Notes: generated by a model not told the origin, from the sequence alone. A DNA stretch of 64,000 bases from Bacteroidales bacterium (GCA_017448905.1 JAFSKP010000060.1:15867-79866), one strand, 5' to 3'; numbered from the stretch's first letter, positions 1,417 to 49,485 are shown. Numbers and translations: made by a program.

Positions 1417-3951
1417 ATGGTTCGTACAGCTGCTTTACTGATCCTGCTCTCGCCGTCACTGTCAGCGGTTAGTCAGGTTGTGGTGGGAGGCAGTTATGAT
1501 GTCGACTACCTTACTCCCAAGACATACGAGATTGGAGGCATCACTATCGACAATGAGGATAACCTCGACAACAGAATGGTACTGCTTGTCGCCGGACTGC
1601 AGGTGGGCGATGTCGTCAAGATTCCCGGCGACAAGATATCCACCGCCATCGACAATCTCTGGCAGCAGGGACTCTTCGAGGATGTGCAGATCCTCCTTTC
1701 CCGTATCCAGGACGACAAGGTGTTCCTCAAGATCGTTCTCCGGGGTCGCCCGAAGCTTGCTGCGGTGAGCTTCAACGGCGTCAGTGGTAGCGATGCCGAG
1801 AAGTTAGGCAAGGATTTCGACATACATGTCGGCGACGTGGTGACCGAAAACATTCTGAAGACCACCTGCAACAAAGCCAAGTCGTACTATGCCGACAAAG
1901 GCTTCACCAACGTCGAAGTCAACACCATACTGAAAAGCGATACCTCCGGGAAAGGCAACTATGTGATACTTACCTACGACATCAAGAAGGGCAAACGCGT
2001 GAAAATCGACTCCCTGATTATTGTGGGCAATGAGAATGTGGCTACCAACAAGTTGCTTCGCAAGATGAAGAACACCCATGATGTGCATTATGCCAAGAAG
2101 CTCTTCTTCTGGACCAAGGGGTTCTGGAGCCGCTCCAAATACCGTGAGTTCGAGCTTAGCAACGACCTCGACCAGCTCATAGCATACTATAACGAGCTTG
2201 GCTACCGTGACGCCCGCATTGTGAACGACACCGTATGGAATGTCGCCCCCGAGGACCTGAAGATGTCCAAAGGCAAGAAACGCAGACAAGACCGTGTCAA
2301 GGTGAAAGTAGAAGTTTTCGAGGGCCGTCCATACTTCTTCCGCAACATCACTTTCTCGGGCAATACCATCTACTCTTCCGAACTGCTTGCACAGCACTTG
2401 CGCATCAAGAAGGGAGACCCCTACAACAAGACCACCCTCGAGACGAACCTCACCTACAACCCTAGCGGTACCGACATCACCTCGATGTATATGGACAATG
2501 GCTACCTCTTCTTCAACGCCACCCCCGTCGAGGTGGCCGTGACGGGTGACTCCATCGACATCGAAATACGCATTGTCGAGGGCAAGCAGGCTCGCATCCG
2601 CAACGTCGTCGTCGAGGGTAACACCATCACCAACGACAAGATAATCTACCGCGAGCTGCATACCAAACCCGGCGACCTTTTCAGTCGCGATGCCGTCATC
2701 CGCAGTCGTCGTGAGCTTGTGACGTTAGGCTACTTCAAGGAGGAGACTCTCGTCCCCGAGCCTCGTCCCAACGCGCAGGACGGCACTGTCGACATCATCT
2801 ACAAAGTCGAGGAGAACCAGACTAGCCAGCTCCAGCTGCAAGGCGGCTACGGCAACGGCATGGTCATTGGACAGGTGGGTATACAGCTCAACAATTTCTC
2901 TGCACGCAACATCTTCAAGAGAGGGGCTTGGCAGCCTCTCCCTGCCGGCGACGGCCAGAAACTGTCACTCAACGCCGTCAGTAACGGACGCTACTACTAT
3001 GCCCTCAACGCTGGTTTCACCGAGCCTTGGCTCGGAGGCAAGCGTCCGCAGTCGCTCGGCATCTCGGTGTCGCACAACCTCCTCAGCAACGGCTTCTGGC
3101 AGGAGAAGGGAAGCAGCAGCTACTATAGCCTCTCCATTACAGGTGGTACAGTCTCCCTTACACGCCGTCTCAAATGGCCCGACGACTACTTCATCATGTC
3201 GCAGTCGCTCTCCTATCGCCACTATAATCTCAACAACTATACCTCGCTTACAGCCTATTTCACCGACGGCCATGCCAACGACCTGGCATACAGCTTAGGG
3301 TTCAGCCGCAATTCGCTCGACTCGCCCATCTACCCGCGTAGCGGCTCGGAATTGTCTTTGCAGGGCTTCGTAACCCCTCCCTATTCGCTGCTGAACGGCA
3401 AGGACTACAGCACAATGTCGGCCTCCGACCGCTACCGTTGGCTTGAGTACTACAAGCTTAACCTGCGCGGTTCATGGATGCTCAACCTCATAGGCGACAT
3501 TGTCCTCAATGCCCGTTTCCGTTTTGGATATATGGGCTACTATAACAGCGATATCGGCCTTTCGCCCTTCGGACGCTACTATGTGGGTGGCGACGGCCTT
3601 TCCTCCTGGCTGCTCGACGGTCGTGAAGTCATCCCTCTGCGCGGATACAACAATTCCAGCCTGAGTCCCAACAACGGAGCTTCAGTCTTCGACCGCTACA
3701 CCCTCGAGCTTCGCCAACCCATCATTGAGAGTGCCAGTGCCACGATATATGTCCTCGGCTTCCTTGAGGGTGGCAACTCATGGGCCACCATGAAAGAGTT
3801 CCAGCCCTTCAAGGTCTACAACTCCGCAGGTCTCGGCGTCCGCCTATATATGCCTATGTTCGGACTGATCGGCATCGACTGGGGCTATGGATTCGATGGC
3901 CTCAATGGCGGCAGCCAGTTCCACTTCAGCATAGGACAAAGTATCGACTGA
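1417..3951 (+). CDS. bamA: Outer membrane protein assembly factor BamA
   Basis: About 850 aa with POTRA-like repeats and a C-terminal barrel ending GGSQFHFSIGQSID. The uppS-bamA-skp order is typical. The start at 1417 gives the signal peptide MVRTAALLILLSPSLSAVSQ; alternative starts are 1336 (ATG) and 1279 (TTG). Confidence 0.88.
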   Translation: MVRTAALLILLSPSLSAVSQVVVGGSYDVDYLTPKTYEIGGITIDNEDNLDNRMVLLVAGLQVGDVVKIPGDKISTAIDNLWQQGLFEDVQILLSRIQDDKVFLKIVLRGRPKLAAVSFNGVSGSDAEKLGKDFDIHVGDVVTENILKTTCNKAKSYYADKGFTNVEVNTILKSDTSGKGNYVILTYDIKKGKRVKIDSLIIVGNENVATNKLLRKMKNTHDVHYAKKLFFWTKGFWSRSKYREFELSNDLDQLIAYYNELGYRDARIVNDTVWNVAPEDLKMSKGKKRRQDRVKVKVEVFEGRPYFFRNITFSGNTIYSSELLAQHLRIKKGDPYNKTTLETNLTYNPSGTDITSMYMDNGYLFFNATPVEVAVTGDSIDIEIRIVEGKQARIRNVVVEGNTITNDKIIYRELHTKPGDLFSRDAVIRSRRELVTLGYFKEETLVPEPRPNAQDGTVDIIYKVEENQTSQLQLQGGYGNGMVIGQVGIQLNNFSARNIFKRGAWQPLPAGDGQKLSLNAVSNGRYYYALNAGFTEPWLGGKRPQSLGISVSHNLLSNGFWQEKGSSSYYSLSITGGTVSLTRRLKWPDDYFIMSQSLSYRHYNLNNYTSLTAYFTDGHANDLAYSLGFSRNSLDSPIYPRSGSELSLQGFVTPPYSLLNGKDYSTMSASDRYRWLEYYKLNLRGSWMLNLIGDIVLNARFRFGYMGYYNSDIGLSPFGRYYVGGDGLSSWLLDGREVIPLRGYNNSSLSPNNGASVFDRYTLELRQPIIESASATIYVLGFLEGGNSWATMKEFQPFKVYNSAGLGVRLYMPMFGLIGIDWGYGFDGLNGGSQFHFSIGQSID

Positions 3952-9351: not shown

Positions 9352-11199
9352 ATGAGTAAAAAACTGGAACTCTTATCGCCGGCCAAGAATCTGGAGCAGG
9401 GTATGGCAGCCATCAGCCATGGTGCCGACGCTGTCTACATCGGAGCCCCCTCGTTCGGGGCGCGACAGGCGGCAGGCAACAGTATCGAGGATATTGAGGC
9501 TTTGGTAAGATATGCACACATTTATGGCTCCAAGGTGTTTGCAACGGTTAACACACTTCTTTTTGATGACGAGTTGAAAGCTGCCGAGGAGATGATGTGG
9601 AAGCTCTACAACGCTGGTATCGATGCTGCAATAGTGCAGGACATGGGCCTTCTCGAAACTCATCTTCCTCCCGTTGAGCTGCACGCATCCACGCAGACCC
9701 ACAACATCGACCCTCGACGCATAAGGTTCTTGGAACAAGTGGGTTTCAAACGCGTTATCCTTGCCCGCGAGACATCGCTCGAACAGATGCGAAGTCTCAG
9801 GAGAGAGGTCACCGCAGATCTTGAAGCTTTTGTGCAGGGTGCTCTTTGTGTCTGCTATAGCGGTCAATGCTATCTGAGCCAATACCTTACCAGACGCAGC
9901 GGCAACCGTGGAGCATGCAGCCAGCCCTGCCGTTCCTCCTATAATCTCCGTAATGCTGAGGGAACGATGCTTAAACATGACGAGCATCTCCTTTCGCTGA
10001 AAGACTTTTCAGCAGCGCAATATCTTGAAGACATGATAGATGCAGGCATCACCTCGTTCAAGATTGAGGGGCGTCTTAAAGATCTCTCATACGTAAAGAA
10101 TGTAACGGCCTACTACCGAAGGTTACTCGACGGTATTATGGCAAACCGTGAAGACCTCATCTCTTCAGGATCTGGGGAGACCCATTTCTTTTTTGAACCC
10201 GACTTGCAACGGACTTTCAATCGCGGCTTTACTGACTATTTTCTTGTCCAACGCCACTCTATGGCCTCTCGCGCGACACAAAAGTCGTTGGGTAAAAAAG
10301 TCGGCACCGTTCTGTCATGCAACGGCAATATCTTGAAAGCAAGGCTGACAGAGCCTTTGCATGCCGGTGACGGCATTTGTTTTTTCAATGCCGACAACAA
10401 GTTGGACGGTTTCATGGTTAACCGTGCAGAGAACGACAAGATTCTGGCTAACAAGGTGATTGAATTCAACGGCGCTGCAACTCTATGGCGTAATAATGAC
10501 TTTGCATTTGAAAAACTGCTGCAAGGTAAGACGGCAGAACGAAAAATTGCTGTAGACATGACACTTATGCCCTCCGATAATGGCATCAAACTTGTATTGA
10601 GTGACGAAGATGACTGCTCGGCCTCGGCAGAACTCTCTATGTCGATGGTACCCGCCCGTGACCTGGCCAAAATGCGTGAGTCTGTCGTCTCACAACTGTC
10701 AAAACTCGGAGGGACACCATTTCGCGTCCGTGCCATTGAACTCTTGTTCGATGAAGTCCCGTTCATACCGTCATCCGTACTCAACCAGCTTCGCCGCGAT
10801 GCTGTCGAGAAACTGAATGGCGTCCGCTTGGCTTTCTTTAATCCCGTCGACCATGCTTTTTCAGTCAACGTTGTCCCGTACTTTTCAGAATCGTTAGACG
10901 CTCGTGCCAACATTGTCAACCACAAGGCCGAAGCTTTCTACCGACGCCACGGGGTGGTGGAGATGGAATGGGGAATGGACATACCTGCTTTTTTTGAAAA
11001 GGAGCGTAATCCGTCTCTTCCGCTGATGACAACAAAGTATTGTCTTCGTTATGAGTTGCGACAGTGTCTGCGTCACAAGTGCAACAATACAATAGATGCG
11101 GGCTACAATGGAGAACTGTTCCTTGAGAACAACGGCAGGCGTTTCCGGCTTTTTTTTGACTGCAATCGCTGTGAGATGCAGCTTTTTGCGACGGATTGA
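9352..11199 (+). CDS. U32 family peptidase (collagenase-like, long form)
   Basis: MSKKLELLSPAKNLEQGMAAISHGADAVYIG and a Cys-rich core EAFVQGALCVCYSGQCYLS. A TATCTTTG -7 box lies at 9320-9327. Confidence 0.85.
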   Translation: MSKKLELLSPAKNLEQGMAAISHGADAVYIGAPSFGARQAAGNSIEDIEALVRYAHIYGSKVFATVNTLLFDDELKAAEEMMWKLYNAGIDAAIVQDMGLLETHLPPVELHASTQTHNIDPRRIRFLEQVGFKRVILARETSLEQMRSLRREVTADLEAFVQGALCVCYSGQCYLSQYLTRRSGNRGACSQPCRSSYNLRNAEGTMLKHDEHLLSLKDFSAAQYLEDMIDAGITSFKIEGRLKDLSYVKNVTAYYRRLLDGIMANREDLISSGSGETHFFFEPDLQRTFNRGFTDYFLVQRHSMASRATQKSLGKKVGTVLSCNGNILKARLTEPLHAGDGICFFNADNKLDGFMVNRAENDKILANKVIEFNGAATLWRNNDFAFEKLLQGKTAERKIAVDMTLMPSDNGIKLVLSDEDDCSASAELSMSMVPARDLAKMRESVVSQLSKLGGTPFRVRAIELLFDEVPFIPSSVLNQLRRDAVEKLNGVRLAFFNPVDHAFSVNVVPYFSESLDARANIVNHKAEAFYRRHGVVEMEWGMDIPAFFEKERNPSLPLMTTKYCLRYELRQCLRHKCNNTIDAGYNGELFLENNGRRFRLFFDCNRCEMQLFATD

Positions 11200-13668: not shown

Positions 13669-14607
13669 CTATAATATGCTGTTCACCTCTTCAAGTGTCA
13701 TTTGGGTTATCTGTGCGATGTCCGATGCAATGAATCCCATTTTTTTCATTCTGCGTACGGTGTCGTTTTTCTCATTCTCACGTCCCTTCGCCTCGCCCTC
13801 GGCGCGTCCCTTCGCCTCGCCCTCGGCGCGTCCTTCGGCAAGGCCGCGGTTATAGCGCCCCACGAGGTATGCCTCTTCGTCGTACACCGACATCCAGAAG
13901 CGTTCATAGGCATACAGTTGCGACTCGCTCATCGACGACTTGGCAACGATGCCGAGTGCCTTGCTGGTCATCTCGTTGTCGAGCAGCTCGGCGGGTGCCT
14001 CGTCTTTGTTCCGTCCTATCTCTGTAAGGAAGCGCAGCCACAGTACAGCCATTTTCTTTTCGGCAATTGTCTTGGGCTTGAATTTGGGTAATTCCACAAA
14101 TACGAAGCGAAGACCCTCGATGCGTCGTTCGGGATGCTCGGTGTTGACTATGGCGTAGTCGTGGTAGAACTCGTCGGGACCGCTCACGAAGCCCACGTCG
14201 TTCACCAGACAGAGGCAGTAGACAGGCTGGATGAGGCTGTAGTTCTCGCCGCTGTCGAGCTGCTTCACCACTGCCTTGGAGGCGTTGAGGATCACGCGCT
14301 GCTGGAAGTAGGGGTTCCAGTAGAGTTGCATCTCGACTATGAACTGCCGCCCCTGCTGGTCGTGGCAGCGCACATCTACGACGCTGTTTTTCTTGCCGGG
14401 GTTCTCGGGCACCATCTCGGGTGTGAGGTATTCCACGCTGGTTATCTGCCCGTCGGGCTCTAGTGGCAGGAGTGCGTTGAGTAGGCTCATCACCAGGTCG
14501 GGGTGTTCGCCGAAGACCAGCTTGAAGGTCAAGTCGGCCTTGGGGTCGAGGTATTTGCCCACAAACCAGCTGTTAAAACTATTTGAGAACTGCTTATTCT
14601 TTTCCAT
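13669..14607 (-). CDS. Rpn family recombination-promoting nuclease / putative transposase (PD-(D/E)XK)
   Basis: DLTFKLVFGE, VDVRCHDQQGRQFIVEMQ, and a C-terminal EG-rich repeat LAEGRAEGEAKGRAEGEAKGRE followed by an HTH-like tail. Confidence 0.8.
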   Translation of the reverse strand: MEKNKQFSNSFNSWFVGKYLDPKADLTFKLVFGEHPDLVMSLLNALLPLEPDGQITSVEYLTPEMVPENPGKKNSVVDVRCHDQQGRQFIVEMQLYWNPYFQQRVILNASKAVVKQLDSGENYSLIQPVYCLCLVNDVGFVSGPDEFYHDYAIVNTEHPERRIEGLRFVFVELPKFKPKTIAEKKMAVLWLRFLTEIGRNKDEAPAELLDNEMTSKALGIVAKSSMSESQLYAYERFWMSVYDEEAYLVGRYNRGLAEGRAEGEAKGRAEGEAKGRENEKNDTVRRMKKMGFIASDIAQITQMTLEEVNSIL

Positions 14608-14868
14608 AATATATTGTCTTACACCTGTTTGAGGTTAGAGCATGGCTGTCTTTACCTGTGCAAAAGTACAAAAAAAAACATATATGGCGAAAAATATCAC
14701 AAAAAGCCTGATAATGACGTTTCCGCGCTTTCTTCCCAAACCATGGCACAAAATAATGTATGACGTTTTTGCCGGATACAACATATTGGTATACACGATG
14801 GAAAAATAATAACGAAATGAAAGATGTAAGTTTTTTACAAAAAATCATGATGTTTTGTGAAAACATTG

Positions 14869-14876
14869 TATCTTTG
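14869..14876 (+). promoter_or_regulatory. Bacteroidota -7 promoter box TATCTTTG
   Basis: Perfect TAnnTTTG match about 310 nt upstream of the ATG at 15189. The same arrangement occurs at 17413. Confidence 0.55.
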
Positions 14877-14879
14877 CAT

Positions 14880-15120
14880 TGGCAAACCGAAAGGTTTTGT
14901 TTGCTGAAAAAGTTGCATTTCGCCTTATTCCAAGTCCGTGAAACTTCGACACTTCACAAGAAATATCAGGAATAAGGGTCTGATGAATGTCTCACTGTAT
15001 TTGTATCTGTTTTTCACAGTACAACACGTGGGGCTAATCATACAGCCTTTATTTATATTTCAGGGAGTCGAAGCCCTCACGGACAAAATGGGGACTGTAA
15101 TGGATGGCTCCACTTTTTCT
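14880..15120 (+). ncRNA. Structured 5' leader / candidate cis-regulatory RNA, copy A (family unknown)
   Basis: Shares conserved blocks and compensatory stems with 17424-17670 (see findings). It ends in a helix followed by CCACUUUUUCU. Confidence 0.55.
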
Positions 15121-15188
15121 CGTTCTTTATTGTTTCCGGGCCGAAACAGAACATTAAGTTGCACCCGACACGAAAATAGGGGACAGTT

Positions 15189-15974
15189 ATGAAAAAAATC
15201 ATTACTTTTGTCATGACACTGACGGCAGTGTTCAGCATGGCCTCGGCGCAGATCTCGCAGGGCAACCCGCACTCGTCGAACATCCGTACAGGCAACAGGC
15301 CCCAGGCCGGCAACTGGGGCGTCTTTATCGGACCCAGCTACAGCGAGTTGAGAGACCTTATCGACTGGATTGACGATGCAGGCAACATCGACATTGTGCG
15401 TGGCCTGCCGCTCATCAATGTCAAGCATTACAATACCGACAATCTCGAGATGCGCCTGGGTCTGCAGTTCTACTCCAAGTCCTACCGCGGCAGTGGCAAG
15501 GCTTTCGGCACTGGCGACAAAGTCAATTTCAAGAACGCCGCGTCGTTCTTCCGGCTGACCCCGGGCATGGCCTACCACTTCTCGTCGAAGAACCTTCTCG
15601 ACGTCTATACCGGCTGCTATATCCCTCTTGGTTATGAAAGCTACACCAACAGCAACAAGACCGGCACTGTCACGAGGAGCCTTCAGCATGGTTCCATGGT
15701 TTTCGGTGTGGGCGCCTATATCGGACTCCAGGCTTTTGTCGCCGACCTGCCCCTCTCCATCGGCCTCGAATACGGTCTTGAGGGTCTGCTCCACCTCGGC
15801 GATGTCGACAAGATGGAAGCCGTCGATGCTGCTGGCGACAAACAGATCAGCTACGACCGTGCCGGCGATGGTACTTTTGGCGGCATCGGACCGTACAAGG
15901 ACCTCTCTGCCACTACCAACGCCATCGGCACCAGCCTCCGCGTCACCATCAGTTACTACTTCTCGAACAAATAA
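15189..15974 (+). CDS. Outer-membrane beta-barrel (porin-like) protein
   Basis: Signal peptide MKKIITFVMTLTAVFSMASAQ, alternating strand pattern, and C-terminal ...LRVTISYYF. Confidence 0.65.
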   Translation: MKKIITFVMTLTAVFSMASAQISQGNPHSSNIRTGNRPQAGNWGVFIGPSYSELRDLIDWIDDAGNIDIVRGLPLINVKHYNTDNLEMRLGLQFYSKSYRGSGKAFGTGDKVNFKNAASFFRLTPGMAYHFSSKNLLDVYTGCYIPLGYESYTNSNKTGTVTRSLQHGSMVFGVGAYIGLQAFVADLPLSIGLEYGLEGLLHLGDVDKMEAVDAAGDKQISYDRAGDGTFGGIGPYKDLSATTNAIGTSLRVTISYYFSNK

Positions 15975-15987
15975 ATAAGGACAAGCC

Positions 15988-16434
15988 ATGAGAAAAACAG
16001 GATTATTTATGACAATGCTCGCCTTGGCGTTGCTCATGACCTCGTGTCGTGGCATGTTCAGCGTGAGCCAAAGCCCTTCAGCATCGGCTGCACCCGATGT
16101 CGTCAGGCTTAACATAGACTACAGCAATGTCCAGTACCTTGGCGAGGTAAGCATGGAGGTCACCAGCACCATCTATCTGGGCGTGATACGCGACATCAAG
16201 ACTGTCAACGGCGAGAGCTACGACTTCCGCAATGTCAAACAGGCCTATTTCAAGGGCCGGAAAGAGGTCAACGTGCCGAATGTCATGAACAAGGCCACAT
16301 ACAAGGTCGTCGAGACATACCCCGATGCGGATTTCTATGTGCCCGTCAGGTGCGTAAAGGAAAAACAGCGCATGTTCCTTGGCCGCAACGAGACCGTCAC
16401 TCTGGTCGTCAGAGCATATAAATACAGCAAATGA
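15988..16434 (+). CDS. Lipoprotein, function unknown
   Basis: Lipobox LALLMTSC. Tightly packed between its neighbours. Confidence 0.6.
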   Translation: MRKTGLFMTMLALALLMTSCRGMFSVSQSPSASAAPDVVRLNIDYSNVQYLGEVSMEVTSTIYLGVIRDIKTVNGESYDFRNVKQAYFKGRKEVNVPNVMNKATYKVVETYPDADFYVPVRCVKEKQRMFLGRNETVTLVVRAYKYSK

Positions 16435-17243
16435 GAAAGTTTTTAGTCATATCTCTGCTTCTCCTGGTGACGCTCGCCTCGTGCAGTCACGACGACGAGA
16501 ACGAGGTGTTCATCATCGTCGACCAGCCCGGGTATACCGGAATCGTGCAGGCTGGCAGCAAGGTGGTGTTCGACGTCAACGCAACCTCCATCGAGGCCTC
16601 GCTCCGCAGCATCACCGTCACCGAACAGTCTGCATCGCTGGGAAGGAATATCCTGCTCGACACCTCTGTCAACGGCAAACAGGTGGAATTCTCCTTCTGT
16701 TATCATGTACCCGAGTTGCTGTCTGACGACTCGGCAAAGGTCAATCTCGTCTTCGAAGCCTGCAATGTCGACGGCGTGAAGTCGCACATGACCCTTGTGA
16801 TGACGGTCTCCTCCGGCTATCCGCTGCACGATGCGTCGGGCGTGACGCTCTACAGTTCACGTTCGGGGAACCCCAACGGGTTGATGCTTGAAACACTGCA
16901 GACAGTCTATGTGGGTGCCGACGCTTCGGTCAACGCCGACATCTATGACTATCTTGACAGTGCAGCTGCCGACACTACATCGATGTCGCTTCGCTGGAAT
17001 AGCGCCACAGACGTTTTGTTCGCGCGTTTCAACGACTTCAACTTCGCTGACGCAAGCGTCAAGACACTGGTCGATTCGTACAGGGCCTCTGTCCATTACA
17101 GCACAATCAAGGACATCAAGGCAGGCGACATCATCCTTGTGGGACGCGAGGAACAAGTCATCGGGGCGATACAGATTGTCGAGGTGTTCGACAGCCCGGG
17201 AGTGGAGAATGACCGCTATATCTTGAACATAAAGAAACTTTAA
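16431..17243 (+). CDS. Lipoprotein, function unknown
   Basis: Lipobox LVTLASC. 4-nt overlap with the upstream gene. Confidence 0.6.
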   Translation: MRKFLVISLLLLVTLASCSHDDENEVFIIVDQPGYTGIVQAGSKVVFDVNATSIEASLRSITVTEQSASLGRNILLDTSVNGKQVEFSFCYHVPELLSDDSAKVNLVFEACNVDGVKSHMTLVMTVSSGYPLHDASGVTLYSSRSGNPNGLMLETLQTVYVGADASVNADIYDYLDSAAADTTSMSLRWNSATDVLFARFNDFNFADASVKTLVDSYRASVHYSTIKDIKAGDIILVGREEQVIGAIQIVEVFDSPGVENDRYILNIKKL

Positions 17244-17412
17244 GTTTTCGTCTGTTTTCCTGGAAGGGGATGCCCGGTTTCATGCCAGGTGTCCTCTTTT
17301 TCTTTTTCCATTTGCATCTATTATTTTAGGTATAACTGCCTAAGTCACAGAATAAAATCAAAAAAAACGGCTTGAAATAAAATATTTTTTCCTCTATTCA
17401 AAGAAATCTTCT

Positions 17413-17420
17413 TATCTTTG
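17413..17420 (+). promoter_or_regulatory. Bacteroidota -7 promoter box TATCTTTG
   Basis: Perfect TAnnTTTG match about 335 nt upstream of the ATG at 17754. Confidence 0.55.
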
Positions 17421-17423
17421 CAG

Positions 17424-17670
17424 CCGCAAACCGAAAGGTAATGTTTGCCGAAAGAAAGCGCATTTTCGCCTTATTCCGATGATAGTGAATCTCGACAACT
17501 CACAAGAATAATTAGGAATAAAGAGAAGATGAATGTCCATATTGGACTGTGTCTGTAGCATCTACAGCACACCCTGTGTGGAGTGATTCATTAAAACTTT
17601 ATTTTTATTATTCAGGGAGTCGAGACCCTACTATCAGAAAATAGGGTGTTCGTGGATGGCTCCACTTTCT
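17424..17670 (+). ncRNA. Structured 5' leader / candidate cis-regulatory RNA, copy B (family unknown)
   Basis: Paralog of 14880-15120 with the same order of conserved blocks and stems. Confidence 0.55.
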
Positions 17671-17753
17671 TGACATCATTTCAGTATTGCCTGGCGGGCC
17701 TCGGGCGAAGACAAAGCCGACGAGGTGGATGGCATATAACTCACCAAAACAAA

Positions 17754-18152
17754 ATGATGAAGAGAAATATACGTCTTTTTGGTATCGTGGCCCTTCTGAT
17801 TGCAGCCATGGTGTTCGTCAGCTCCTGCAGCAAGGAGAAGAAGATCATAGGCAAATGGAAATGCACCAGCGCCACCGGCAACTTCAAAGAGTTTAAGGAC
17901 GAGACTGTCACTTTCAAAGAGGGTGGCAAATGTACATTCATTGACATAGATGGCGAATGGTCAATCTCGAAGGACAATCTCACAATCGAGATTGATGATG
18001 ATGAAGTCAAAGCCACCTGCGACTTCACTATCGATGATCTCAGCAGTAGTGAAATGTCGCTGGACGGCACCATGACTATCAAAGAATATGATTATGAATA
18101 TGGGTATGAGACGTATAAAATAAAAGGTACTATGGACCTCGAGAAGAAGTAA
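17754..18152 (+). CDS. Small lipoprotein (lipocalin-like, IGKWKC motif)
   Basis: MMKRNIRLFGIVALLIAAMVFVSSC lipobox. The portion of the ORF-track ORF upstream of 17754 lies inside the leader RNA. Confidence 0.6.
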   Translation: MMKRNIRLFGIVALLIAAMVFVSSCSKEKKIIGKWKCTSATGNFKEFKDETVTFKEGGKCTFIDIDGEWSISKDNLTIEIDDDEVKATCDFTIDDLSSSEMSLDGTMTIKEYDYEYGYETYKIKGTMDLEKK

Positions 18153-18187
18153 GCGACAGCTTTTTTACTACTGTTTTGTTTGATGAT

Positions 18188-18226
18188 CACCAGAGGGTGC
18201 ATGCTTCGACCATATCCCCTCTGGTG
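18188..18226 (+). terminator. 10-bp stem hairpin between the lipoprotein and vWA genes (terminator or attenuator)
   Basis: CACCAGAGGG-N19-CCCTCTGGTG followed by TTCTGT. The U-tract is weak. Confidence 0.35.
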
Positions 18227-18260
18227 TTCTGTAGTTCAGGATTTAATTTAAAATAGTTAT

Positions 18261-19814
18261 ATGAAGATACGACGATTACTCACACTCGCGGCTCTTCTGG
18301 CATTGCCGTTGCTCGTTTCGGCACAGAAAGACGACCAACAGCCGCTGGACCCCGAACACTCCAACTATGTCATACGGGGCGACATGAGCAGCGGCATGAA
18401 TGGCGACAAGCCTTTTTTCAAACTGAAAAATGTCACGCACAGGGGTATCACCTTCACCGAGCAGTCGGAATACAGGGGCGACGACTCCTACGACTCCGAG
18501 ACCGAGCGCGTGACCTTCTCTTTCAAGCGTGCCGATACCGACCACCCCAACAAATTCAACAACCCCCTGATCCTCTGGACATGGGATAAGGGTGCCGGAA
18601 AGTGGAAACGCGATGTCGAGAAGACCGAGAACAAGATGACTTTCCAGGAGAAGTTCATCATCAGCGTGATGATGGTGCTCGACTGTAGCGGCTCGATGGT
18701 TGAGAACGGCAGCACGAACTTCGACACCATGATACGGAGCGCATTGACATTCTTGGACACGCTGCATCAGGACGCACGCACCAGGAGAAACATCCACGTC
18801 GGTCTCATAGGCTTCAACACTACCAAATATGCCGACGCACATGCCTACAGCCCTGTACCTCTCACCAACGAGAACTACGAGAAACTGCGTAACTACATCA
18901 AGAACCTTGACCGTCCAAGAGAGGATGCAGGCACTGCCTTTTACTACAGCGTCGACAAGGCCGTCGACATGCTGAAGGAGAACTACAGCCGCATGTCTAT
19001 TGGCGACGGGCAGTTCATCGGCTCCACGATAGTGGCCTTCACCGACGGCAAGGACAACATGTCGAAGGACTATTCGAAAAAAATCACCACCCTCGACGAC
19101 TATCTCTACTACATGCAGGACCAGTTCCCGAAGCACAGGGTCGGCCAGCTGCCGATTTGGAGCCGCTGCATTGCCTTCAGGGGCGAGAATGTGGACCTTT
19201 CGGAATGGAACTCCATGGAGAGTGATGTCAAGAGTGTCTTCGGCGATAAGGGTTTCCAGACCATACGGCAGATGGACGAGCTCAGCGGTACGTTCAGCGA
19301 GATAGCGCGCAACCTCATGGGCAGCTTCATGGTGCTCAACTGCCAGGTGCCCAGCGCTATCTCCGGCCCGGTGGCATGGACTATTCCTGAATACGGAAAG
19401 GTCGCCCCCCCACCGCCTCCCGCACCCCCCAAGGAGTCGCACCTGCCTTGGATTGGCGTCAGCGCCGAGTTTGCCACACTCGAGGGCGACTATCTTGGCG
19501 GTCTCAACGTCGATATGGTCTTCTCCATCACCGATATGTTGGGTATCGGAGGCCGCTTGGGCGGTCTCTACAACATCAGCTCTGGAGGCTTCGACTTCCT
19601 TGTGGGACCCGAAGCCAAGCTCACTTTCTACGACGAAAATGCCATCATCGCCGGTTTTGGTGCCGGCATGAACCTCGACGAGGGTACGCTTATGCTCTCA
19701 CTCCGTGTAGGCTACAAGTTCAAGAATCCTCTGTTCCTGACGGCCGAGACTATCTACTGCGACGGTTGGTTCGGTACCGGAGTAGGTGTTGGCTTCTCGT
19801 TCGGAGGCAATTGA
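18261..19814 (+). CDS. Secreted vWA-domain protein with Pro-rich linker and C-terminal Gly-rich beta-barrel-like anchor
   Basis: Signal peptide ...LLVSAQ, MIDAS motif VLDCSGSM with TDGKDN, linker APPPPPAPP, and a C-terminus of G/F/Y-rich strands ending GVGFSFGGN. Confidence 0.8.
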   Translation: MKIRRLLTLAALLALPLLVSAQKDDQQPLDPEHSNYVIRGDMSSGMNGDKPFFKLKNVTHRGITFTEQSEYRGDDSYDSETERVTFSFKRADTDHPNKFNNPLILWTWDKGAGKWKRDVEKTENKMTFQEKFIISVMMVLDCSGSMVENGSTNFDTMIRSALTFLDTLHQDARTRRNIHVGLIGFNTTKYADAHAYSPVPLTNENYEKLRNYIKNLDRPREDAGTAFYYSVDKAVDMLKENYSRMSIGDGQFIGSTIVAFTDGKDNMSKDYSKKITTLDDYLYYMQDQFPKHRVGQLPIWSRCIAFRGENVDLSEWNSMESDVKSVFGDKGFQTIRQMDELSGTFSEIARNLMGSFMVLNCQVPSAISGPVAWTIPEYGKVAPPPPPAPPKESHLPWIGVSAEFATLEGDYLGGLNVDMVFSITDMLGIGGRLGGLYNISSGGFDFLVGPEAKLTFYDENAIIAGFGAGMNLDEGTLMLSLRVGYKFKNPLFLTAETIYCDGWFGTGVGVGFSFGGN

Positions 19815-48203: not shown

Positions 48204-48279
48204 ACTATAAAAATATTATTTTTTTTGTAGTTTGAAATATAAATCGTATCTTTGCATTGTCAAACAAAATATAATAATT

Positions 48280-49485
48280 ATGGATATATCTGATATTCAG
48301 CCATTATACGATACGTTTTATCGCAAAATCGACAAAATTAGTCTTCGATTCAAGAGGTATTTGTACGACCAGATACATTGGAATGCAAGAATCATTGGCA
48401 TAAAAGGAGCTCGCGGCGTTGGCAAAACGACAATGCTGCTGCAACATATACGAGAGAATTATTCCGACATCAGCAAGACCCTGTATGCTTCCCTCGATGA
48501 CCTTTGGTTTTCCTCCCATTCTCTTATTGACCTTGTGGATTGGGCAGACCGTCACGGAATCACACGTTTGTACCTTGACGAAGTTCACCGCTATGAGAAC
48601 TGGTCTCAGACCTTGAAGAATATCTACGATAACTATCCAGACATGGGCATAATCTATACCAGCAGCTCCATATTGATTATGGATAATGCAAAGGTGGATT
48701 TATCCCGCCGACAGACCGTCTACACGCTTTATGGGCTGTCGTTCCGAGAGTACCTGGCTTTCGAGGATGTTGTGCACATCGATCCCGTTCCGTTTGATGA
48801 ACTGCTCGAGACACATGTGCAGAAAGCAATGCAGATTGTCAAGAACGTGAAGATTGCCCCTTTGTTTGAGGGCTATCTGGAGCATGGGTATTATCCTTTT
48901 TATAAAGAGATGCCAGAGGATTTCCAAAGTCGGTTGAGGGATGCTGTTTCTACCGTTATCGACAACGACCTTCCTTCCGTGGAGAATGTCTCGTTTGAAA
49001 CTATCCAAAAGGTTCGCAGACTGTTGATGATAATCAGTGAGCGTGTTCCGTTTGAACCTAACATGTCCGAGCTTTGGAAACAACTCTCTACAAACAACGA
49101 ACTTGGACTCAGGATGCTCTATGCGCTCGACAAGGCACAGATTCTGACGCTTCTCACTTCCAAGGTAAAGAACTACAAGTACCTGTACAAGCCGGACAAG
49201 ATATTCCTCAACAACCCAAACCTTATGCACGTCCTTTGCCCCAGGGTGGACAAGGGAAATGAGAGGGAAACTTTCTTTGCGAGCCAGCTGCAAGCAACCA
49301 CCGACATCAAGCATCCCAAGCAGGGCGACTTCCTTGTGGCGGACAAATACCTTTTTGAAGTTGGAGGGAAAAACAAGACATTTGATCAGATAGCCGATAT
49401 GCCGGACAGTTATCTTGCTGTGGACGATACGGAAATTGGTCATGGATGCCGTATTCCTTTGTGGTTGTTTGGACTGACCTATTAG
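48280..49485 (+). CDS. COG1373-type AAA ATPase (DUF4143)
   Basis: Walker A GARGVGKTT, Walker B LYLDEVH. A -7 box TATCTTTG lies at 48247-48254, so the ATG at 48280 is preferred over 48232. Confidence 0.8.
   Translation: MDISDIQPLYDTFYRKIDKISLRFKRYLYDQIHWNARIIGIKGARGVGKTTMLLQHIRENYSDISKTLYASLDDLWFSSHSLIDLVDWADRHGITRLYLDEVHRYENWSQTLKNIYDNYPDMGIIYTSSSILIMDNAKVDLSRRQTVYTLYGLSFREYLAFEDVVHIDPVPFDELLETHVQKAMQIVKNVKIAPLFEGYLEHGYYPFYKEMPEDFQSRLRDAVSTVIDNDLPSVENVSFETIQKVRRLLMIISERVPFEPNMSELWKQLSTNNELGLRMLYALDKAQILTLLTSKVKNYKYLYKPDKIFLNNPNLMHVLCPRVDKGNERETFFASQLQATTDIKHPKQGDFLVADKYLFEVGGKNKTFDQIADMPDSYLAVDDTEIGHGCRIPLWLFGLTY

Follow-up and report, generated by a model that had tools for sequence, protein, structure and literature searches.

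Two different operons within one 64,000-nucleotide (nt) stretch of DNA from Bacteroidales bacterium (GCA_017448905.1 JAFSKP010000060.1:15867-79866; hereafter the window, to which positions refer unless a locus, designated by L and a number, is named) are each preceded by a long and similar leader, which raises the question of what these leaders are and what they do. The two, copy A (14869-15188) and copy B (17413-17753), are instances of an undescribed module consisting of a promoter and a folded 5' leader RNA of about 320 nt. Each runs from a TAnnTTTG -7 box to the start codon, and from this layout each would be a self-contained expression module, in which a Bacteroidetes-type promoter is followed by a leader that opens with the 5'-terminal hairpin P1, continues through a core of about 215 nt and carries two small hairpins, H3 and H4, on its 3' side. 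Together with their homologs they establish a new family of leader RNAs that are linked to promoters, highly structured, and kept by evolution in two conformations. What these conformations do is a more tentative matter, an attenuator-type switch being the favoured interpretation.

A first-pass annotation, made from the sequence alone, had proposed a promoter-proximal structured RNA in two copies that fitted no known family, and on both counts it was upheld. Both copies open with the -7 box TATCTTTG, and the blocks listed as common to them are indeed shared, in unchanged order; identity between A and B is 78% over 388 alignment columns. Within the window, exact matches to GGATGGCTCCACTTT, GCAAACCGAAAGG and TTCAGGGAGTCGA are confined to copies A and B, and a profile search recovers exactly two full copies. 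Their minimum free energies (MFEs) are -82.2 (A) and -82.5 kcal/mol (B), with z-scores of -6.0 and -5.6, none of 200 shuffled sequences being equally stable. Rfam 15 gave zero matches in the window at gathering thresholds and, in a permissive search of 14700-17900 (E up to 10), chance-level matches only (E >= 1.8); the gut and rumen homologs were likewise without a match. The 3' ends originally proposed, at 15120 and 17670, proved to be too early: the conserved element continues for about 70-85 nt further to the start codon, and this additional part holds two hairpin blocks, the first having a CGRGCC loop (15132-15147 in A, 17689-17706 in B) and the second lying at 15157-15183 in A and 17725-17746 in B.

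Homologs are given here as totals among the matches listed from two collection scans and a profile search. A scan of a genome collection with a 3' pattern found 16 metagenome-assembled genomes of Bacteroidales, of rumen, deer and horse origin, together with nine chance matches in other phyla, and a metagenome scan with an independent 5' pattern found 79 loci. A profile search of all the retrieved sequence then gave 92 elements with 65 distinct cores, from rumen, horse and human-gut Bacteroidales, including a more divergent group of low G+C content (GC) from human-gut metagenomes. The position of the element is constant, on the sense strand with a conserved TAnnTTTG box 5' of it and the first open reading frame (ORF) 3' of it, and conservation in the family passes H3 and H4 and stops just short of the start codon. 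P1, a hairpin already recognised in the first-pass annotation, is supported by the homologs, being more stable than its own shuffles in 64 of 64 segments (58 distinct sequences); the same holds for a variable hairpin at the apex of the core in 58 of 59 segments (52 distinct sequences). The many homologs and the strong covariation between them bear out the earlier view of a functional RNA as opposed to a recent duplication. Association with phage was rejected, the single match in viral contigs being due to chance, as was a high-copy repeat or miniature inverted-repeat transposable element, there being two copies per 64 kb here and one per 8-20-kb locus elsewhere.

The segments of the leader are named, from 5' to 3', P1, S1, c, X, V1, f, g, h, V2, X', k (comprising k5 and k3), apical hairpin, m, X'', V2', p (AGGG-g'-CCCU-YAC), V1', X''', t, t3', H3 and H4. 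The compensatory changes among homologs show that the core can take two mutually exclusive predicted folds, both of which have been kept by compensatory evolution. In fold R, the 5' half pairs with the 3' half to give a rod of about 100 base pairs (bp), through V1:V1', g:g', V2:V2', X':X'' and k3:m. In fold C, a two-hairpin state, domain I is formed by c:k, X:X' and f:h, and domain II by m:t and AGGG:CCCU, and the terminal loops of the two hairpins are complementary to each other (CUUCGAC and GUCGAAG). Since X:X' and m:t cross V1:V1' and V2:V2', the two sets of helices cannot be nested together. A single four-way-junction or double-crossover fold housing all the helices was judged, by inference from geometry, to be sterically unlikely.

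Pairs were counted in an anchored alignment of 47 sequences, with gaps coded as N. The strongest covariation is that of V1:V1' in the rod, where five pairs show 20-29 double changes each. The hypervariable segments V1/V1' and V2/V2' are complementary inside each sequence and not across sequences: the cognate V1:V1' duplex has a predicted energy of -11.0 kcal/mol against -5.6 for non-cognate combinations, and V2:V2' one of -10.7 against -6.4 kcal/mol. Two pairs of g:g', which may form either in the rod or as a loop-loop kiss, show 10-11 double changes, and k3:m contributes four compensated pairs. For fold C, X:X' shows changes on both sides in six pairs; m:t, taken with m2:t2, is compensated in four; and f:h and c:k5 have two compensated pairs each, as has AGGG:CCCU (in L029 and L049). 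The m:t helix itself has 7 bp, of which six are paired in 100% of sequences and three show compensatory double changes. Fold C with g:g' and V1:V1' is 91.0% paired, compared with 84.6% in shuffled alignments and 40-49% in controls with slid registers, and has 28 pairs with changes on both sides; its score is equalled in none of 500 shuffles. Likewise, the rod set is 91.0% paired against 82.6%, with a covariation score of 0.281 against 0.128, again equalled in 0/500 shuffles. RNAalifold, applied to natural, unanchored sequences, independently recovered the helices S1:t3', X:X', m:t and AGGG:CCCU; compensation was seen in 13 of its 27 pairs. There are 343 G·U pairs against 70 A·C pairs, an asymmetry that places the fold in sense-strand RNA.

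These data also revise the pairings originally drawn. The stem of CGCCUUAUUCC and GGAAUAAGG, which is X:X', stands, with its six pairs changed on both sides, and so does the small GUGAA/UUCAC hairpin that it encloses, which is supported by covariation. The pairing of GGAGUC with GGCUCC is not supported: compensation is seen in one cell, as against four A·C breaks, and 92 of 500 shuffles do equally well. The actual partners are GUCGAAG with CUUCGAC, and GCUCCAC with GUGGAGC and with the loop of the downstream hairpin. Nor is the stem given as CCCU/GGGG or CCCUA/UAGGG supported, being canonical in just 34-61 of 65 sequences; the partner of CCCU is the upstream AGGG. The earlier structure contained neither the rod (V1:V1', V2:V2') nor the 3'-terminal 70-85 nt, and in place of the local hairpins that it showed, the predicted MFE structure is a single long rod.

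A further contact links the core to its 3' flank. The loop of H3 complements GGCUC in t, and loop and t co-vary in three lineages in a comparison that used curated H3 hairpins: the combination GGCCU/AGGCC is found in L071 and the gut group, and AGGGCU/AGCCCU in L101 and L059. Free variation is seen in the segments that have one partner (P1, V1, V2, the apical hairpin and the H3 stem), which keep their hairpins all the same, and invariance in those that have two (X, X', k, m, t and g), a pattern that is accounted for by two-state pairing. In the nested energy model, in which the 7-bp loop-loop kiss is not counted, fold C lies 4-19 kcal/mol above the rod, and the single-sequence MFE structure is the rod of about 100 bp in every sequence tested. 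For the growing transcript, domain I (X:X') is predicted to be the MFE structure until about nt 180 and the rod thereafter, so that refolding would be intrinsic to synthesis.

It is tempting to suggest that the leader is an attenuator-type conformational switch, with m:t and the U-tract as terminator and the rod as antiterminator; a probability of about 0.4 is assigned to this interpretation. The segments would be arranged as in an attenuator that chooses between 1:2/3:4 and 2:3 pairing. In fold C, the G+C-rich helix GUGGAGC:GCUCCAC would stand directly before the U-rich UUUCUUCGUUGU as a putative intrinsic terminator; alternatively, a loop-loop kiss (g:g') would nucleate the rod, locking GUGGAGC to k3 and giving read-through, after which the loop of H3 (GRGCC) could capture the freed GGCUC. 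Candidates for the signal that would bias the choice are a protein, a small molecule, an RNA, or the kinetics of folding. Homology ends right past H3/H4 and the cargo differs from copy to copy, so the output must reside within the conserved leader, which makes sequestration of the ribosome-binding site a less favoured mode of action than termination, processing or stability.

Several observations weigh against such a switch. The U-tract UUUCUUCGUUGU is interrupted and is paired with S1 in both folds, and the putative terminator helix encloses a loop of about 95 nt. The k3:m helix is local and would be formed before t exists, and the thermodynamic ground state is the rod. For the counts, the author had anchored the alignment on the proposed registers; support for m:t, f:h, AGGG:CCCU and c:k comes from few lineages, with 1-5 compensated sequences per pair, and because these lineages are related the independent events are few. 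The downstream genes have no function in common, which is odd for a signal-responsive switch: 57 downstream proteins match 38 Pfam families and form no coherent pathway of the kind expected below a riboswitch, and in the leader no conserved unpaired nucleotides are evident that together resemble a ligand pocket. The 5' leader does have the conserved structured domain that a riboswitch would have. A leader peptide was also considered and rejected, since leader ORFs opened by AUG range from 5 to >47 codons and have no conserved length or stop. Two AUGs in the conserved k block, GAUGAAUG (14984-14989 in A; 17530-17535 in B), open leader ORFs, and these are probably not translated as leader peptides.

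Some of the same observations would be expected if the module were a portable promoter-plus-leader cassette whose leader is a constitutive structural one, with the rod, P1 and H3 as the sole functional end state, serving to protect the 5' end of the mRNA, to direct processing by RNase III, or to insulate expression from the nature of the cargo. The helices of fold C would then be co-transcriptional intermediates that guide assembly and involve no regulatory decision. This explanation, which is possible and somewhat less likely than a switch, is consistent with the rod being both the MFE structure wherever tested and the site of the strongest covariation, with the position of P1, which starts 1-6 nt past the -7 box in the manner of 5'-end stabilisers, with the heterogeneous cargo, non-exported proteins included, with the location of copies in low-GC islands and accessory regions beside recombinases and toxin-antitoxin genes, and with the existence of decayed and half copies. 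However, a pure stabiliser would have no need of about 215 nt, the invariant blocks and the compensated helices incompatible with the end state (X:X', m:t and AGGG:CCCU) would be superfluous, and the co-varying contact between t and the H3 loop would be left unaccounted for.

It is doubtful that the leader is instead a docking platform for a trans-acting factor that sets elongation, processing or stability of all the operons bearing the module. Such a factor might be a NusG-like protein of a specialised kind, an antiterminator protein, a double-stranded-RNA-binding protein, or a small RNA pairing with the CUUCGAC or GUCGAAG loop. The invariant blocks are longer than pairing alone demands, the two exposed loops of 7-8 nt are perfectly conserved, and there is a Bacteroides precedent in the leader-encoded recruitment of NusG paralogs (PMC11685472). 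Yet no conserved regulator gene was found among the neighbours, the opsX motif YGCGNAGCR is present in 0 of 65 leaders and the first downstream gene is not upxY, and the invariance is already explained by pairing with more than one partner.

Less probable again is that the element acts as DNA, its inverted repeats being the substrate of an adjacent recombinase, either in an invertible leader switch or as an integron- or rAID-like exchange site. At about 18 loci, roughly a third, a recombinase gene does lie 55-110 nt (about 90) 5' of the element on the same strand, and tyrosine and serine types interchange behind one and the same pair of genes, a WYL_2 gene and one for a protein of about 105 amino acids (aa), as comparison of L049 with other loci shows. 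The tyrosine recombinase, of 196-199 aa, lies 55-103 nt upstream in at least 13 gut loci, where the gene pair precedes it, and matches only the catalytic domain of the XerC/XerD/XerA models; its relatives number thousands, one of them named from Phocaeicola barnesiae. An Mpi-like serine recombinase occupies the equivalent position in L039/L068, L069, L085 and L049. The cargo diverges immediately past the conserved backbone, the islands are of low GC, and an invertible leader is said to have a precedent in C. difficile. Three half-elements (L033 and L098, model positions 1-174; L007, 174-335) share one break point inside m, between GTGGAGCAAT and TCA, which could be the mark of a recombination crossover. 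Against all this, the 89 full-length matches among the 92 elements are collinear and in one orientation, with no inverted variant; the excess of G·U over A·C makes the repeats poor as DNA, and they are poorest in the very group with a tyrosine recombinase (m GTGGGGTTGTCTG vs t GGTGGCCTCAC); the window and most rumen loci have no recombinase nearby; and no repeated sites were found between the cargo genes, which abut or overlap, with one element per locus. An inverton was rejected likewise: inverted repeats are present in X/X' and m/t, the former as a 17-nt repeat in copy B (17461-17477/17515-17531, 82% complementary, corresponding to c+X:X'+k), with no inverted copies, and no inverted repeats flanking the promoter were found. 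The adjacent recombinases could link the module to rAID-like mobile islands. The least likely proposal, scarcely more than a speculation, would combine the two levels in an integron-like expression-and-capture platform, in which a small tyrosine (or interchangeable serine) recombinase would swap cargo at a crossover between GTGGAGCRAT and TCA, the same sequence, once transcribed, would fold into a bistable leader setting the expression of the captured cargo, and the element might be the uncharacterised conserved sequence 3' of the recombinase in rAID islands.

The positions of the features are collected in Table 1.

Table 1. Features of the two leader copies, the operons that follow them, and recombinase genes at homologous loci.
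Feature	Position	Strand	Basis or remark
Copy A -7 promoter box TATCTTTG	14869..14876	+	TAnnTTTG box also in homologs
Copy A P1, 5'-terminal hairpin GGCAAAC...GUUUGCU	14881..14905	+	Folding, homologs
Copy A S1 (GAAAAAG), c (UUGCAUUUCG), X (CCUUAUUCC)	14906..14931	+	S1 pairs with U-rich t3'; X with X' (two-hairpin state) or X''' (rod)
Copy A V1 (AAGUCC), f (GUGAAA), g (CUUCGAC), h (ACUUCAC)	14932..14957	+	Covariation
Copy A V2, X' (AGGAAUAAGGG), k (UCUGAUGAAUGUCUC)	14958..14993	+	Duplex energies, pair counts
Copy A variable apical hairpin	14994..15027	+	Folding, family shuffles
Copy A m (GUGGGGCUAAUCA), X'' (CCUUUAUUU), V2'	15028..15061	+	m pairs with k3 in rod, with t in two-hairpin state; compensatory changes in both
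Copy A p (AGGG-A-GUCGAAG-CCCU-CAC), V1' (GGACAA), X''' (AAAUGGGG)	15062..15094	+	
Copy A t (AUGGAUGGCUCCAC) and U-rich t3' (UUUUUCU)	15100..15120	+	GGCUC complements H3 loop
Copy A H3 hairpin GUUUC-CGGGCC-GAAAC	15132..15147	+	Variable stem, conserved GRGCC loop
Copy A H4 block AAGUUGCACCCGACACGAAAAUAGGGG, up to ATG at 15189	15157..15188	+	GUUGCGCCCGACACG kept in a subset of homologs
Operon after copy A: 261-aa signal-peptide protein, 148-aa and 270-aa lipoprotein-like ORFs	15189..17243	+	No Pfam match
Copy B -7 promoter box TATCTTTG	17413..17420	+	
Copy B P1 hairpin	17426..17448	+	
Copy B 5' half: S1, c, X (17469-17477), V1, f, g (17490-17496), h, V2, X' (17514-17524), k	17450..17538	+	
Copy B apical hairpin	17539..17577	+	
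Copy B 3' half: m (17578-17590), X'', V2', p (17614-17631), V1', X''', t (17653-17665), t3'	17578..17672	+	
Copy B H3 GCCUG-GCGGGCC-UCGGGC	17689-17706	+	
Copy B H4 GGUG-GAUGGCAUAUAACU-CACC	17725-17746	+	Block extends to ATG at 17754
Operon after copy B: 132-aa lipocalin-like lipoprotein, 517-aa VWA-domain protein	17754..19814	+	
Recombinase genes, tyrosine type	L092 5252-5851; L064 7772-8368; L105-L110 10001-10591		
Recombinase genes, serine type	L085 3777-4424; L069 1273-1914; L049 2459-3103		

The promoter is a regular part of the module. In 16 of the first 18 homologs the TAnnTTTG box lies 185-207 nt 5' of CAGGGAGTCGA, the exceptions in distance being L013 (232/205) and L020 (250); the half-element L007 alone has no box. 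A TTTG is found a further 19-20 nt 5' of the -7 box in 23 of 63. A palindrome of 28 nt (79% complementary, without a spacer), at 14820-14875, overlaps the -7 box of copy A and faces a divergent Rpn/PDDEXK_2 gene (13669-14607, minus strand). At 48246-48265, GTATCTTTGCATTGTCAAAC is 95% identical to the promoter and first P1 bases of copy A, and here an ORF follows directly (ATG at 48281) with no leader element between. Sites resembling TTCAGGGAGTCGA with at most two mismatches number eight in the window, where 1.6 are expected and none of 100 shuffles reaches eight; beyond the two copies they lie at 637, 2006(-), 5162(-), 23703, 24719 and 56317, that at 2006-2018 (-) having a single mismatch. 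The hairpin before the start codon, H4, comes in two flavours, that of copy A (GUUGCGCCCGACACG...GGG), whose loop repeats the CGACAC of block g/h, and that of copy B (GCCGAUGCUAUAUAACCGGC). Besides its intact element, locus L002 carries 1.1 kb further upstream (1868-1955) what is left of the 5' part of another, decayed one, in which the -7 box is mutated and homology stops directly past CTTCGACAC.

The genes that follow the module are extremely diverse, and most first ORFs have a signal peptide or a lipobox. The initial description of the cargo as exported envelope proteins is correct for the window and fails across the family, where zinc-ribbon, radical-SAM and small cytoplasmic proteins are found too. 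The Pfam matches include BspA-type leucine-rich repeats (5), zinc ribbons (4), DUF6383 (4), outer-membrane beta-barrels, Fib_succ_major, trypsin-like, C10 and S8 peptidases, and radical SAM/SPASM enzymes. The upstream neighbours are diverse as well, with toxin-antitoxin and housekeeping genes among them. The loci with a tyrosine recombinase are low-GC islands of about 12 kb, in which a single element lies between the recombinase and a variable cargo operon. In L105 and L109 the islands have 34-38% GC inside chromosomes of 51-53%, and are bordered by a large integrase (Arm-DNA-bind_5/Phage_int_SAM_5) or a large serine recombinase. No recombinase homolog was found in the window, where the cargo, at 50-56% GC, equals its flanks. 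In L092 a 5S rRNA gene (9595-9707, minus strand) lies about 3.3 kb downstream of the element. The idea of a guide RNA was set aside, the variable loops having no significant DNA matches elsewhere in the locus.

Bacteroidales dominate gut and rumen communities, and to our knowledge few cis-regulatory RNAs are known in them. The present leader is large and widespread, extending from rumen metagenome-assembled genomes to Phocaeicola-type islands of the human gut, and among the genes behind it are those for surface proteins, adhesin-like BspA proteins and proteases, along with further accessory genes. A true switch would point to a signal controlling surface remodelling; if the leader is part of rAID-like islands, their biogenesis and regulation would become directly testable. 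In practical terms, it offers a ready-made portable expression module for Bacteroidales that are genetically poorly tractable.

General literature keyword searches were unproductive for the leader, and it was compared with several known systems in turn. The FopS small RNAs were dismissed as trans-acting regulators of polysaccharide utilization, and a single-stranded-DNA promoter of the Frpo type, in which a template-strand hairpin has the promoter within its stem, on the grounds that the wobble asymmetry indicates the sense strand and that the promoter lies outside and upstream of the rod. In Bacteroides capsular polysaccharide operons, opsX sites in the leader, recognised by UpxY, control elongation (PMC11685472); such a site is a non-template hairpin with YGCGNAGCR, a pause hairpin comes before it, and upxY is the first gene. 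The present element resembles these in lying in the leader regions of operons for surface structures, but is about eight times longer than the opsX element of about 40 bp and has no upxY or upxZ downstream; an opsX/UpxY leader was rejected, both because of the missing motif and because the first genes are unrelated. The processive-antitermination RNAs HK022 put and EAR, and 'mobile promoters', likewise place a cis-acting structured RNA or a reused promoter before unrelated genes, often in mobile DNA, but Rfam searches revealed no similarity of sequence or structure here.

The rAID-1 islands were considered because of the adjacent recombinases. They are defined by an XerD-like tyrosine recombinase on the 5' side, with at least 44% identity to BF9343_RS08045, followed by at least two co-oriented genes of GC <=41%, and they contain repetitive intergenic sequences (Ross et al., bioRxiv 10.1101/471110). 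In rAID islands, the sequence 3' of the recombinase is reported to contain a conserved motif, which was not characterised (bioRxiv 10.1101/471110; PMC12247911). The gut group shares with them the 5' tyrosine recombinase, a conserved sequence directly 3' of it, and co-oriented downstream genes of low GC (35-38% against 51-53% in the flanks); genes within the rAID-1 limit are found in L092, L105, L109 and L064 (29-38% GC) and not in the window. In contrast, intergenic repeats are lacking here, the cargo consists of lipoproteins, zinc-ribbon proteins and others rather than obvious immunity genes, the window and most rumen loci have no recombinase, and no RNA structure is described in the rAID papers. 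rAID-1 was set aside, the fit being partial for the gut subgroup and absent for the window.

The invertible leader switches of surface-protein operons in Clostridioides difficile, reportedly exemplified by cwpV and flgB, also have a long inverted-repeat element between promoter and first gene, a recombinase encoded nearby, and an output that follows transcription initiation; here, in a different phylum, there is no inverted copy and the repeats are kept as RNA pairs with G·U. Attenuators and riboswitch platforms (trp, pyr, T-box) are likewise promoter-proximal and cis-acting, with four segments that pair as 1:2/3:4 or 2:3 and a G+C-rich helix set against a U-rich tract. The present leader differs from them in having no conserved leader peptide, no recognisable aptamer and no common downstream pathway, and in having a rod of about 100 bp as putative antiterminator and complementary loops on its alternative hairpins. 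Isomerisation from kissing hairpins to an extended duplex is known from the HIV-1 dimerisation initiation site (DIS), CopA/CopT and RNAI/RNAII. These systems, too, consist of two fully complementary hairpins with complementary loops of 7-8 nt that can convert to a long duplex, whereas here both partners lie in cis in one bacterial mRNA leader and no second molecule is involved; if the leader is a true switch, it would represent a new class of riboregulator, operating through kissing-hairpin to rod isomerisation in cis.

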